Positions 5,173 to 8,731 of a stretch of DNA of 42,067 nt are shown piece after piece (position 1 is the stretch's first letter; each line of letters starts with the position of its first letter). The translations under genes and the position numbers were made by a program. The notes under the pieces were generated by a model, which was given only the letters and a program-made list of their open reading frames with translations, was not told where the DNA came from and ran no database searches. Source of the DNA: Myxococcales bacterium (lineage in GTDB: Bacteria > Myxococcota_A > Polyangia > Haliangiales > Haliangiaceae); the NCBI GenBank assembly GCA_016794525.1, contig JAEUJY010000022.1, positions 1 to 42,067 of the forward strand, in the 5' to 3' direction.

Positions 5173-5247
5173 CGGCCGCCGCCGCGGGGTGATCGCCCCT
5201 GCGAATCCTCCGGAACAAACGCGCGGCCGCGCGCTGTGGGGGTGGAG

Positions 5248-7071
5248 ATGTCCAAGGACACCCCCGCCCATCCGTACCAGCCCGCCGCGATCGTCCCGCT
5301 GCCCGCGCCCGTCGCGCCCCCCGCGCCGCCCGCGCCGCCCGAGGGCGAGGTCGTCGGGTGGGGCGGCAAGGCCCGCTGGTCCGACGCCACCGCGTTCACC
5401 GCCTCGGCGCTGATCGCCCGCGAGCTGGCCGCGCTCGGCGTGCGCCACGGCTTCGGCGTGCTCGGCGGCGGCATCGCCGCCTTCGCCGACGGCCTGCGCA
5501 AGAGCCCGATCCGGCTGTTCCACACCCGCCACGAGGCCGGCGCGGCGTTCGCCGCGGTCGAGGCCCACTTCGCCACCGGCCGGCCGACGCTGGTCGTCAC
5601 CACCACCGGCCCCGGCCTGTGGAACGCGCTCAACGGCGCGATGGCGGCGCGGGCCGACGGCGCCAAGCTGCTGCTGATCTCGGGCGCCACGTCGCGGGCC
5701 CAGGTCGGCCGCGGCGCGGTGCAGGAGACCGGCTCGGCCAGCGCGCCCGCCGGCCTCACCACGGCGGGCCCGCTGTTCCACCTCGCGGCCCAGCCCGAGT
5801 CGATCGCCGAGCTCGGCCACTTCCTGCAGCAGCTCGCGCTGGGCTGGGCCGGCCCCGGCGGCTGCGTCGCGCACCTGGCGCTGCCGTGGTCGCTGCAGAC
5901 CGAGCTGTGCGACCCGGCCACCGCGCCGCGGGCCGCCGCGTGGTCGGTGGCGGCGCCGGCGCCGACGGTCGAGGCCCTCGACGCGACGCTGGCGCGGCTG
6001 GCCGGCGGGCGCGCCGCGATCTGGATAGGCCACGGCTGCCGCCACGCCGCCGCCGAGCTGCGCGCGTTCGCCGAGGCCGCCGGGCTGCCGGTGATCGCCT
6101 CGCCGCGGGCCAAGGGCGTGTTCCCCGAGTCGCACCCGCAGTTCGTCGGCGTCTCCGGCGCCGGGGGCCACGCCTCGGTGATGGCGATGTTTGCCACCGC
6201 GCGCCCCGATACGTTGCTGGTGCTGGGCACTCGATTGGGAGAGGTGACCTCGTTCCTCGCGCCCACCGCCACGCCGGCCGCCGGCTGGATCCACGTCGAC
6301 GTCGACCCGCGCGCGTTCGCGGCGGCGTTCCCCGGCGTCCCCGGCCTCGGCGTCGTCGCCGACTGCCGCGCGTTCCTGGCCGCGCTCGACGCCCGGGCCC
6401 GCACCACCGGCTGGTACGCGACGCGGCGCGCGACGACGGTGCCCGCGCTGGGCCGCCCCGCGCCGCTGGCGCCGCGCGCCGGCGACGTGCGGCCGGCGTT
6501 CGTGATGCAGGCCGTGCAGGCCCAGGTCGTCGACGCCACCGACGCGATCGTCATGAGCGAGGCCGGCAACTCGTTCACGTGGTGCAACTACGCGCTGCGG
6601 TTCGACGCGCCCGATCGCTACCGCACCAGCGCCGCGTGGGGGTCGATGGGCCACTTCACGACCGGCGGCGTCGGCGCGGCGCTGGCCAGCGGCCGGCGCG
6701 CGGTCGCGGTGGTCGGCGACGGCGCGATGCTGATGAACAACGAGATCAACACCGCCGTCGCGTACCGCGCCGACGTGGTGTGGCTGGTGCTCAACGACGC
6801 GCAGCTCGGGCTCAACCAGCACGGCATGGGCGCGCTGGGCATGACGCCGGTCGAGACCCAGCTGCCGCGCACCGACTTCGCCGCGTTCGCGCGCAGCCAG
6901 GGCGCGGTCGGCCTCACCGTCGACACCGAGGCCGAGCTGGCCGCGGCGCTGGCCACCGCGCTGGCGACCCCGGGCCCGGTGGTGATCGACGTCCGCGTCG
7001 ACCCCAGCGTGCCGTCCCCGATCCTCGCGCTGCGCATCAAGAGCCTGTCGTCCCAAGGAGCCTCCCGATGA
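5248..7071 (+). CDS. Thiamine-diphosphate-dependent enzyme of the acetolactate synthase / benzoylformate decarboxylase superfamily
   Basis: N-terminal TPP pyrimidine-binding domain (RHEAGAAFAAVEAHFATGRPTLVVTTTGPGLWNALNGAMAA). C-terminal TPP-binding domain with the GDG motif (GSMGHFTTGGVGAALASG...VVGDGAMLMNNEINTA). Start is ATG 5248 (GTG 5236 also possible). The stop TGA 7069-7071 overlaps the next gene's ATG as ATGA. Confidence 0.8.
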   Translation: MSKDTPAHPYQPAAIVPLPAPVAPPAPPAPPEGEVVGWGGKARWSDATAFTASALIARELAALGVRHGFGVLGGGIAAFADGLRKSPIRLFHTRHEAGAAFAAVEAHFATGRPTLVVTTTGPGLWNALNGAMAARADGAKLLLISGATSRAQVGRGAVQETGSASAPAGLTTAGPLFHLAAQPESIAELGHFLQQLALGWAGPGGCVAHLALPWSLQTELCDPATAPRAAAWSVAAPAPTVEALDATLARLAGGRAAIWIGHGCRHAAAELRAFAEAAGLPVIASPRAKGVFPESHPQFVGVSGAGGHASVMAMFATARPDTLLVLGTRLGEVTSFLAPTATPAAGWIHVDVDPRAFAAAFPGVPGLGVVADCRAFLAALDARARTTGWYATRRATTVPALGRPAPLAPRAGDVRPAFVMQAVQAQVVDATDAIVMSEAGNSFTWCNYALRFDAPDRYRTSAAWGSMGHFTTGGVGAALASGRRAVAVVGDGAMLMNNEINTAVAYRADVVWLVLNDAQLGLNQHGMGALGMTPVETQLPRTDFAAFARSQGAVGLTVDTEAELAAALATALATPGPVVIDVRVDPSVPSPILALRIKSLSSQGASR

Positions 7072-7877
7072 TCGTCGATCCCTTCGAGCTGCCGCCGATG
7101 GCGCTGACCGCCACGCCCGCCACGCCCGCCACGCCCGCCGCCGGCGACGCGCCGGCCGCCGCCACGTACGTCGGCCCGTTCGATCGCGAGGCGTGGCCCG
7201 AGCGCCTCGCGGCCCACGTCGTCAGCCCCGGCGCCGAGCCGCGGCTGCACGGCTACGCGGTCGCCGGCGACCTCGCGCGCTTCTACGGCGCGGTCGACGT
7301 GACCTGGCTGGTGCTGCGCGGCGAGCTGCCGACCGCCGCCGAGCGGGCCGCGTTCGACGTCGCGATGGTGCTCCTGGCGCCGGTCGCGATCGGCGAGGCT
7401 CCCGCCCACGCCGCCGGGCTGGCGCGGATCGCCGGCGCGCCGCCGGCCGCGACGATCGCGATCACCGCGGTCGGGCTCGGCGAGCAGGCCCGCGCCGAGC
7501 GCGCGGCGATGGCGCCGTGGTGGGCGTGGCTGGACGCGCCGACCGGCGCGGTGCCGGCGTGCGCGCTGGTGCCGACCGAGTCTCCCGAGTCGCTCGAGGC
7601 CCAGGCGGCCCGGCGCTGGCTCGACGGCCAGCTGCGGAGCTGGTTCGGCGCCGATCGCGGGCTGCCCGACGCGCCGATCGGCCGGGTCGCGTGCGGCCAC
7701 GCCATCCTCCATCGCCTCGGGCTGCGCGGGCCGGTGGTCCTCGAGACCGTGCTGGTGTGGGCGCGGCTCCCCGCCGTCATGGCCGAGGCCGCCGCCGTGC
7801 GCATCGGCGACGTCCGCGGCTACCCCGCCCGCCTGCCCGACTTCCAGTACACCGACCACGAAGGAGCCGCGCCGTGA
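7068..7877 (+). CDS. Citrate-synthase-like (citryl-CoA-lyase-like) domain protein, probably non-catalytic
   Basis: ATG 7068 is preceded by AAGGAG at 7055-7060. HGYAVAGDLARFYGAVDVTWLVLRGELPTAAERAAF resembles the citrate synthase N-terminal region (RGYxIxDL...YLLxxGELPTxxE). Translationally coupled on both sides (ATGA at 7068-7071, GTGA at 7874-7877). Confidence 0.55.
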   Translation: MIVDPFELPPMALTATPATPATPAAGDAPAAATYVGPFDREAWPERLAAHVVSPGAEPRLHGYAVAGDLARFYGAVDVTWLVLRGELPTAAERAAFDVAMVLLAPVAIGEAPAHAAGLARIAGAPPAATIAITAVGLGEQARAERAAMAPWWAWLDAPTGAVPACALVPTESPESLEAQAARRWLDGQLRSWFGADRGLPDAPIGRVACGHAILHRLGLRGPVVLETVLVWARLPAVMAEAAAVRIGDVRGYPARLPDFQYTDHEGAAP

Positions 7878-8731
7878 CCACCGCCTCTCGCCCCCCGCGG
7901 CCGACGCAGCGCGCCGGCCACATCGGCACCGACGACAACCGCTACTGCGGCGCCGCCGTGTTCGGCGCGCTCGCCGCGACCGTCACCTCGCAGATCGATC
8001 TCACCGCCCGCGCCCACGGCCTGTGCGACCTGACCGACGGCGACCGCGAGGTGCTGCGGGTCATCTCGCTGTGCCTGACCTCGCCCGACGCGCGGGTGTG
8101 GCCGCTCAAGCTCGCCCGGGTGCTGGCGTCGTACGGCGACGCCTACGCCGGCTACTTCGGCGCGCAGCTCGGCACCGGCAGCCAGCAGCTCGGCCCCGGC
8201 GTCACCGCCGGCGCCGCCGCGTCGCTGGCGTGGATCCGCGCCCGGGTCGGCGCCGATCCTACCGACGAGGCGGTCGCCGCCGCGGTCGCCGCCCACACCG
8301 CCGAGCGCGGCCGGATCGGCGGCTTCGGCGTGCCGTTCCGCGCCCAGGACGAGCGCCTGCTCGGCATGTACCGCCTGCTCGCCAACCATCCGGCGCGGCG
8401 CCGGCCGGGCTGGCGGCTGATGGAGCAGGTGGTCCGCGCGCTGCGCGCCGCGCACGGCGTCGAGCCCAACATCGTCATCGCGATCGCCGCGCTGGTGCTC
8501 GACCTCGGGCTCGCCCCGCACCGCGCCGGGCTGTTCGTCGCGTCGCTGATGAGCCACACCTTCGCCGCCCACGCCGTCGAGGCCGCCGAGCAGGACGGCC
8601 CGTGGCTGCAGCGGCTGCCGGCCGACGCGCTCGAGGATCGCTCGCGCGCGCCGCGCCGCTCGCCGGCCGCCGAGGCCGCCGCCGCCGCCGGCTCGACCGC
8701 GGCCAGCGCGCGGCGGACGCTGGCCTGGTAG
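7874..8731 (+). CDS. Citrate-synthase-like domain protein lacking the catalytic histidines
   Basis: GRIGGFGVPFRAQDERL aligns with the citrate synthase GFGHRVYKxxDPR motif, with His replaced by Val. EPNIVIAIAALVLDLGLAPHRAGLFVASLMSHTFAAHAVEA aligns with the NVDFYSG...LFAxSRxxGWxAH region. GTG start overlaps the upstream stop (GTGA). Ends at TAG 8729-8731. Confidence 0.55.
   Translation: MTTASRPPRPTQRAGHIGTDDNRYCGAAVFGALAATVTSQIDLTARAHGLCDLTDGDREVLRVISLCLTSPDARVWPLKLARVLASYGDAYAGYFGAQLGTGSQQLGPGVTAGAAASLAWIRARVGADPTDEAVAAAVAAHTAERGRIGGFGVPFRAQDERLLGMYRLLANHPARRRPGWRLMEQVVRALRAAHGVEPNIVIAIAALVLDLGLAPHRAGLFVASLMSHTFAAHAVEAAEQDGPWLQRLPADALEDRSRAPRRSPAAEAAAAAGSTAASARRTLAW

Follow-up and report, generated by a model that had tools for sequence, protein, structure and literature searches.

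The locus described here raises the question of what a thiamine diphosphate (ThDP)-dependent carboligase does with two downstream proteins of the citrate-synthase fold. The analysed DNA, referred to as the window, is a stretch of 42,067 nucleotides from a Myxococcales bacterium (positions 1 to 42,067 of contig JAEUJY010000022.1, assembly GCA_016794525.1), and the locus consists of three overlapping genes: A, which encodes the ThDP enzyme, B and C. The explanation favoured here, tentatively and with a probability of about 45%, is a heteromeric ThDP carboligase in which B and C, derived from citryl-CoA lyase (CCL; CoA, coenzyme A), serve as non-Claisen partner subunits. The evidence is presented gene by gene, followed by the conservation of the unit and the alternative explanations.

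The ThDP-dependent enzyme

The protein encoded by gene A was matched by the Pfam domains TPP_enzyme_N, TPP_enzyme_M and TPP_enzyme_C. The catalytic-glutamate motif RHEAGAAF and the ThDP motif GDG...LND (VVGDGAMLMNNEINTAVAYRADVVWLVLND) were both found in the translation and aligned with those of BbmA. Judged from its sequence, A is intact and apparently competent as a carboligase, and within the acetohydroxyacid synthase (AHAS) superfamily it falls on the ScyA-like branch. The best NCBIfam score was obtained with the ScyA-related model NF035927 (589 bits, below its cut-off of 1000), followed by the ScyA model NF035923 (555 bits, below its cut-off of 1020), and the next family reached only 216 bits. 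With TIGR00118, the model of the AHAS large subunit, A scored 185 bits, the cut-off being 538. With scores below all cut-offs, A is placed by these models outside every curated family.

Among solved structures, BbmA was closest (8x3x, 1.8e-59); AHAS I, 2-hydroxyacyl-CoA synthase and CsmA came next. Among distinct genome loci of the ScyA type, A was more conserved than its partners, with identities of 50-79% compared to 36-64% for B and C. The same pattern is known for AHAS, the catalytic subunit of which is more conserved than the regulatory one. The N-terminal ~48 residues of A are poorly conserved, and the start of the trio, originally placed at 5236, is either the GTG at this position or the ATG at 5248.

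The fold of B and C

In a direct Pfam search, no match was obtained with the window's B and C, and the single-sequence searches of the PDB were marginal or empty, so that family profiles were needed. The scores with the NCBIfam citryl-CoA-lyase models (PRK06224) were below the cut-offs: 16.7 bits compared to 212 for B, and 29.8 bits compared to 193 for C. The homologue searches resulted in 62 relatives of B and 76 of C, the names given being myxobacterial, and some members of the B and C families carry a precomputed match to PF00285.

The motifs HGYAVAGDL and RGELPT of B and the GFG loop of C, from which the original prediction had proposed the citrate-synthase fold, are all present, and the profile searches led to the same fold. 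Every significant match of the B and C family profiles in the PDB was a citrate synthase, a methylcitrate synthase, a CCL or an ATP-citrate lyase (ACL). The wide C-family profile was aligned residue by residue and over the full length with the CCL of Hydrogenobacter (6hxp) at an E value of 1.3e-16. The AlphaFold models of B and C had a predicted local distance difference test score (pLDDT) of about 89 (89.6 for C), and the template-modelling (TM) scores of C to CCL modules, determined with Foldseek, were 0.71-0.78. Each of the two proteins was found to have the citrate-synthase/CCL fold, and both are complete and of CCL length, so that they do not correspond to an N-terminal and a C-terminal fragment of the fold. 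In an exhaustive profile search, the C family was found to contain 746 clusters (at 50% identity) with a threshold of E<=1e-3, and 239 clusters with the stricter E<=1e-30.

The former active site

The residues of the former active site were counted in alignment columns over 43 C and 32 B sequences, the C positions being mapped via the alignment with Ccl, the Hydrogenobacter enzyme. In pig citrate synthase, the catalytic triad consists of H274, H320 (of GxGHR) and D375 (of PNVD), and the carboxylate-binding arginines are R329, R401 and R421'. In ACLY, an ATP-citrate lyase, the residues H900, R976, D1026 and R1065 have been named, R976 being CoA-binding (PMC10115795).

In the C family, position 106, which corresponds to the His of SAHGGA (pig H274), is occupied by I, V, M or L, and position 153, the His of GYGHR (H320), is Val in 38 of the 43 sequences. 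The following Arg (position 154; ACLY R976) is replaced by Pro in 39/43, and position 201, the Asp of NVD (D375; ACLY D1026), is V, A, G or S. The R401 equivalent, position 226, is variable, so R401 is lost as well. The window's C has Val in place of the GFGHR histidine of citrate synthase (motif GGFGVPFRAQDERL), as had been predicted for GFGHRVY; this replacement does not stand alone, since neither B nor C of the window has kept any of the three triad equivalents. The invariant residues of C (43/43) are G150, G152, R156, D159, R161, D210 and R261, and R74, W76, K79, R82, P154, E160, N199 and E236 are nearly invariant. R161 is the Arg of a DPR motif and equivalent to R329 of citrate synthase; R261 is the Arg of YTGSPPR in Ccl and presumably the equivalent of pig R421'.

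The B family is typified by the N-terminal motifs RxHGY..DL and GELP. Its invariant residues are G62, G85, H114, G218, E240, Y252, P253 and P257, H114, E240 and the YP..P motif (Y252-P253...P257) being kept in 32/32 sequences. The GxGHR and PNVD segments of B were unrecognisable. Their equivalents, G-x-(L/V)-P and x-R-x, were assigned by a hand alignment anchored on G218 and the R233/E240 motifs, which makes the mapping of the C-terminal half of B less certain than that of C. In this hand alignment, the Asp-equivalent position 207 is Asp or Glu in 12 of the 32 sequences and Val in the window's B; the R401 equivalent (R233) is kept in 25/32, and the R329 segment is absent.

According to these alignments, hydrophobic or small residues occupy the positions of the His/His/Asp triad in the whole C family as well as in B of the window, from which we conclude that neither B nor C can be a citrate synthase or a citryl-CoA lyase. 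The original term 'degenerate' is nevertheless misleading: since invariant and partly new polar residues are kept at the former active site, both proteins appear to be remodelled rather than decayed, and the column counts show B and C to be under strong selection at and around this site. The retention of R161 and R261 together with the new R74, K79 and W76 speaks for a ligand that is anionic and may be an aromatic 2-oxo or 2-hydroxy acid, whereas a CoA ester is a less well supported possibility.

Conservation and coupling of the three genes

ThDP-B-C was found to be kept together in about 100 loci, the flanks of which are unrelated. In the GTDB contigs, with one genome per species, a ThDP gene lies beside B-C in 22/22 loci, and in 21 of them the three genes share a strand and follow each other as A-B-C; in the remaining locus, L028, the ThDP gene is divergent and on the opposite strand. 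The labels of the 22 loci are Myxococcota or Deltaproteobacteria, save for one metagenome-assembled genome (MAG) labelled Pseudomonadota, and the taxa include Kofleriaceae, Nannocystaceae, Byssovorax, Polyangiales and Archangiaceae. The closest genome locus, in a Myxococcales MAG (L007), has 90-96% protein identity to the window's trio. The module is also present in the cultured strains Nannocystis radixulma and Nannocystaceae strain ST9.

Metagenome contigs with C proteins 42-64% identical to the window's carry the same trio between unrelated genes. When four distant C-family members and a metagenome scan (80 loci) were inspected, the B-like and C-like genes adjoined each other in every case and, provided that the contig extends far enough, followed a ThDP gene, L096 excepted. 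Neither of the two outcomes that would have refuted the original prediction, a failure of B and C to match the citrate synthase fold or a lack of conservation of the trio in related genomes, was observed. The clustering of flanking open reading frames (ORFs) from all loci revealed no family common to more than seven loci; the trio therefore stands by itself and does not belong to a larger conserved cluster.

In L096 (332-3601), the B-C pair adjoins a divergent dedicated kinase, and no ThDP gene was found in the locus. The same divergent kinase occurs in L110 (76-2281), a contig too short to exclude a ThDP gene and probably like L096. The B/C pair may not always need an adjacent ThDP gene.

The third-position GC content was 0.94-1.00 inside the frames of A, B and C and dropped only in bins straddling the gene boundaries; all three are real coding regions. 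The ATGA overlap of A with B and the GTGA overlap of B with C, both reported earlier, were confirmed, and each is preceded by a Shine-Dalgarno sequence inside the upstream gene (Table 1). In the non-redundant homologous loci, a 4-nt overlap was kept at 46 of 63 ThDP/B junctions and at 80 of 90 B/C junctions, which is far beyond chance and indicates that the coupling is a selected feature. Conserved translational coupling is the usual mark of subunits with a fixed stoichiometry.

Two architectures of the module

The module occurs in two clearly distinct architectures. In Type I, to which the window belongs, the ThDP enzyme is ScyA-like, 43-96% identical to A, and scores 589-737 bits with the ScyA-related model (715-737 bits for the Class III relatives); a kinase was found in none of the 27 loci with enough upstream sequence. 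In Type II, the ThDP enzyme is AHAS-like and ~30% identical to A, its best model being TIGR00118 with 357-403 bits, which is below the cut-off. In all 15 Type II loci, the genes for the AHAS-like enzyme, B and C are preceded by a dedicated histidine kinase gene, sometimes with a 4-nt overlap.

The Type II kinase consists of 560-600 aa and has a conserved N-terminal part of ~230 aa with invariant W, D and R and three Cys (C..C....GD..C), after which probable membrane segments follow. No Pfam or NCBIfam match was obtained with this N-terminal domain, and its sole PDB match, the Zn-Cys motif of the phenol sensor MopR, was insignificant (E 1.4). In two independent lineages, represented by P0295 and P0208, C is fused to a C-terminal response-regulator receiver domain (REC), and a PAS-domain gene follows that of P0208 with a 4-nt overlap. 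More fusions of this kind were sought among the fetched loci and none was found. Unlike P0295 and P0208, which are genuine, a third apparent fusion, P0005, 85% identical to the window's C, was rejected because it has the appearance of an assembly chimera. Through its kinase and receiver links, the sister architecture shows a tie of the module to signalling in part of the family.

As to function, a single neighbour recurred, a HisC-like class I/II aminotransferase located next to five ScyA-type trios. Its best PDB match was 4r2n, a putative phenylalanine aminotransferase (1e-44), and in L022 and L023 a 4-nt overlap joins its start to the stop of C. Together with the affinity of A to ScyA/BbmA, this linkage suggests that the substrates of A are amino-acid-derived 2-oxo acids. 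These pointers to 2-oxo acids neither require nor exclude a CoA substrate.

Proposed function and alternative explanations

In the favoured explanation, A, B and C would act as one functional unit. A would decarboxylate a 2-oxo acid, probably an amino-acid-derived one, and join it to a second carbonyl substrate, the expected product being an acyloin or an alpha-hydroxy-beta-keto acid by affinity to ScyA/BbmA. B and C would be an obligate pair of anciently diverged paralogues of the citryl-CoA-lyase fold. Since citrate-synthase-fold enzymes are obligate dimers with active sites built from both chains, the most likely arrangement of B and C would be a heterodimer of the citrate-synthase type, perhaps as a B2C2 core resembling the tetramer that CCL forms in ATP-citrate lyase. 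The pockets of the pair would bind a small anionic ligand, either a 2-oxo/2-hydroxy carboxylate or a CoA ester. With the triad gone, B and C are incapable of Claisen or retro-Claisen chemistry. By binding their ligand, they would assist A as non-canonical partner subunits, whether in taking up a substrate or effector, in activating A or as a scaffold. As the pair is found with two ThDP lineages and coupled in every case, it is most likely a direct partner of the ThDP enzyme, and its occurrence with both ScyA-like and AHAS-like enzymes fits a generic partner of AHAS-superfamily carboligases. An association of A with B/C, and of B with C, is suggested indirectly by their strict co-occurrence, the conserved 4-nt overlaps and the Shine-Dalgarno sites.

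Several observations weigh against this explanation. Translational coupling is also found between consecutive pathway enzymes. B and C barely align with each other: hhalign of the two families gave a 60-column N-terminal alignment only, with a probability of 6%, and their presumed paralogy is based on the separate matches to CCL. The invariant Asp, Glu, His, Lys and Arg residues of B/C could form a new catalytic site, which makes 'non-catalytic' an assumption. The CoA-contact map which we presume for C by comparison with pig citrate synthase partly clashes with ACLY, where R976 corresponds to Pro154 of C.

The main alternative is that A and B/C are consecutive enzymes, B/C being a neofunctionalised enzyme of the citrate-synthase fold which acts on a labile product of A; this is considered rather unlikely, and the available data do not separate it from the partner-subunit explanation. 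The product of A would be an alpha-hydroxy-beta-keto acid, a tertiary hydroxy-carboxylate with a citrate-like carbinol carbon, and B/C, acting after A as ScyC acts after ScyA, could catalyse, for example, its controlled decarboxylation to the acyloin, a rearrangement or a cyclisation. In favour of this alternative, C keeps the R329 equivalent R161 and R261 and gains the invariant R74, W76, K79 and D210, and B keeps the invariant H114 and E240. ScyA-type and AHAS-type enzymes share the same product core, which would explain how one B/C pair serves both ThDP lineages. However, apolar residues stand at all of the classical acid/base positions, and we know of no catalytic precedent for such chemistry in the citrate-synthase fold. 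Two different paralogues are also required in every case, and the fusions of C to a receiver, like the dedicated kinase, are as suggestive of a regulated or regulatory module as of a plain pathway enzyme.

The chemistry of the original prediction, taken here as a reaction in which B/C present an acyl-CoA thioester to the ThDP-bound carbanion of A to give a 1,2-diketone or an alpha-hydroxyketone and free CoA, is regarded as improbable. The closest structural relatives of B/C are CoA-ester enzymes, and in the Ccl alignment C keeps the Gly-x-Gly loop (G150, G152) and R156/D159/R161, a segment (G150/G152 to R161) which in pig citrate synthase presumably contacts the CoA adenine, the diphosphate and the substrate carboxylate. 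Nevertheless, the equivalent of the CoA-contacting R976 of ACLY is the Pro found in 39/43 C sequences, no CoA-ligase or acyl-CoA-forming gene was linked to the module in the flank clustering of all loci, and the linked aminotransferase points to 2-oxo acids instead. Much less probable still is that B and/or C are an ordinary citryl-CoA lyase or citrate synthase merely sharing a transcript with an unrelated ThDP enzyme. The weak NCBIfam citryl-CoA-lyase matches and the precomputed PF00285 matches of some family members would agree with it, but the scores of the window's proteins are a small fraction of the cut-offs, Pfam gave no match, the triad equivalents have been exchanged across the whole C family as well as in B of the window, and the ThDP linkage is present wherever the contig lets it be seen, save L096. 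That B and C are decaying remnants or mis-called ORFs might be suspected from the many spurious long ORFs of high-GC genomes and the lack of Pfam matches with the window's proteins. It is already refuted by the conservation data: the third-position GC is 0.97-0.99 in the right frames, the 62 and 76 close homologues and the 746 clusters of the wide C family were found, the pLDDT is about 89, and the invariant residues are held across ~30%-identical sequences.

A more far-reaching version of the partner-subunit explanation, for which the kinase and receiver links leave room, is put forward by analogy and as a long shot. ThDP-B-C might be a new kind of small-molecule synthase, in which a 'dead' heterodimer of the citrate-synthase fold hands an acyl-CoA or oxo acid to the carboligase, the product being an acyloin/alpha-hydroxyketone-type signal. 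The sister architecture would then couple the synthase directly to a sensor kinase of its own, with a receiver fused to C as a further link in some lineages, a myxobacterial autoinducer-like circuit with the logic of CqsA/CqsS and no shared ancestry.

The original prediction did not recognise the combination as a described system, and the full-text literature searches likewise found no description of ThDP-B-C, although their coverage was incomplete and a prior description is possible. What is new is probably the class of partner that accompanies the ThDP enzyme in a heteromeric carboligase, with a modest chance of something more unusual. If A, B and C are one enzyme, it would be the first ThDP carboligase with partner subunits from the citrate-synthase/citryl-CoA-lyase fold and a clear bacterial case of this fold recycled as a non-Claisen ligand-binding or regulatory module, a parallel to the allosteric role that is debated for this module in human ATP-citrate lyase. 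The family is large, with 746 clusters for C alone, carries no annotation and has so far been found only in myxobacteria, a phylum noted for its signalling and secondary metabolism. That it is repeatedly connected with a dedicated histidine kinase and with receiver domains suggests an unexplored link between metabolites and signalling.

Genomic setting

The G+C content of the window is ~74%, and the real genes were told from the numerous spurious ORFs by a codon-position GC plot. The neighbours identified with Pfam are an HD-domain protein, HflX, a major-vault-protein (MVP)-like protein, a Tdi1-like protein, Ffh, pirin, two PAS hybrid kinases, TIM, PGK, GAPDH, a fusion of Ser/Thr kinase and GGDEF domains, and giant proteins with MopE repeats. 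The gene content points to a Myxococcota chromosome region with housekeeping and signalling genes and no biosynthetic cluster. The coordinates are collected in Table 1.

Table 1. Features of the window and of homologous loci. Positions without a locus or protein name are those of the window.
Feature	Position	Strand	Remarks
Gene A, ThDP-dependent carboligase	5248-7071	plus	607 aa from ATG 5248; alternative start GTG 5236
Shine-Dalgarno AAGGAG for B	7055-7060	plus	within 3' end of A, 7 nt before ATG 7068
ATGA overlap	7068-7071	plus	TGA of A (7069-7071), ATG of B (7068-7070)
Gene B, CCL-fold protein without the citrate-synthase catalytic triad	7068-7877	plus	269 aa
Shine-Dalgarno AAGGAG for C	7861-7866	plus	within 3' end of B, 7 nt before GTG 7874
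GTGA overlap	7874-7877	plus	TGA of B (7875-7877), GTG of C (7874-7876)
Gene C, CCL-fold protein	7874-8731	plus	285 aa; family-profile alignment, AlphaFold, Foldseek
Predicted coiled-coil protein	42-2273	plus	743 aa; Pro-rich N-terminus, then very long Ala/Glu/Arg-rich predicted coiled coil
MVP-like gene	8739-11252	minus	Pfam MVP_shoulder 3.9e-20, Vault_3 1.6e-11
Small protein with C-terminal domain of the type VI secretion system (T6SS) immunity protein Tdi1	11747-12313	minus	1.6e-8
Protein adjoining the Tdi1-like gene	12356-~13600	minus	~414 aa; no Pfam match
Multi-PAS hybrid histidine kinase	19366-22323	plus	large; HisKA, HATPase, receiver
tpiA (triosephosphate isomerase)	22330-23088	minus	between the two multi-PAS kinases
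Multi-PAS hybrid histidine kinase	23275-27684	plus	large; HisKA, HATPase, receiver
GGDEF diguanylate cyclase and Ser/Thr protein kinase in one protein	27691-30543	minus	GGDEF residues 267-365; kinase 452-698
MopE-repeat giant	33496-36432	minus	978 aa; MopE-type putative metal-binding repeats
MopE-repeat giant, adjacent	36459-40550	minus	1363 aa; MopE-type putative metal-binding repeats
Type II histidine kinase, example	L032:2639-4450		kinase loci: L027, L029-L032, L034, L036, L040, L041, L045, L046, L056, L071, L100, L103
C-receiver fusion P0295	REC 274-381		388 aa
C-receiver fusion P0208	L113:671-1876; REC 286-396		401 aa
PAS-domain gene after P0208	L113:1873-2322
Aminotransferase	L022:6795-7808
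Aminotransferase	L023:6801-7775
Aminotransferase	L019:1467-2582
Aminotransferase	L086
Aminotransferase	L087:5424-6512	minus

The MVP-like gene codes for a bacterial homologue of the major vault protein of eukaryotes and converges with gene C, with 7 nt between their ends. Between it and ffh, the Tdi1-like gene and its ~414-aa neighbour may form an immunity/toxin-type pair. The 743-aa protein was not matched in Pfam, and the local G+C content and AT skew of its gene are 0.81 and 0.30, respectively. One of the two MopE-repeat giants also has a weak FGE-sulfatase-like domain. The N-terminal domains of the window's multi-PAS kinases are not homologous to that of the module-linked kinase.

In the Rfam scan of the whole window, no RNA family was found, which speaks against a riboswitch upstream of gene A. 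No sigma-70-like promoter was detected between positions 5000 and 9000, and the terminator scan of the same region gave a single terminator-like site, which is at chance level. No defence system was matched by PADLOC with A, B and C.

Comparison with known systems

The systems CqsA/CqsS of Vibrio and LqsA/LqsS of Legionella can be compared with Type II by analogy only, as genes with a potential acyloin/alpha-hydroxyketone product located beside a sensor kinase. In contrast to the module, CqsA and LqsA are pyridoxal phosphate and not ThDP enzymes, and the window's own architecture, Type I, is without the kinase. ScyA, BbmA and CsmA (8x3x, 8x3z) are the best sequence relatives of A, and the HisC-like aminotransferase linked in some loci, as a 2-oxo-acid-supplying enzyme, is parallel to ScyB. 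On the other hand, no scyB- or scyC-type neighbours are present in the window and no flanking family is conserved, and we know of no citrate-synthase-fold partners of the ScyA, BbmA and CsmA enzymes.

The Ccl of Hydrogenobacter thermophilus and the CCL module of ACLY are similar to B and C in fold and length, and C shares with Ccl the GxG loop and the D-x-R, PN and C-terminal G..PR motifs. The difference lies in the catalytic His/His/Asp and R401 equivalents, which are replaced, in the two divergent paralogues compared to a homo-oligomer, and in the ThDP enzyme compared to a succinyl-CoA-synthetase-like partner. Within ACLY, the oligomeric core of the larger enzyme is made up of the CCL module, which has been argued to play an allosteric role (PMC10115795).

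The AHAS holoenzyme (IlvB/IlvI with IlvN/IlvH) also has a ThDP catalytic subunit of the same superfamily with one or more partner genes directly downstream, often coupled, and a partner less conserved than the catalytic subunit; moreover, the best match of the Type II ThDP enzyme is the model of the AHAS large subunit. Unlike AHAS, the partner here consists of two CCL-fold proteins and not of an ACT-domain protein, and both A and its sister ThDP enzyme score below the AHAS cut-off. As far as the sequences tell, the module belongs to none of the AHAS, ScyA, citrate synthase and CCL families, and in its layout it is most like an AHAS-type holoenzyme.

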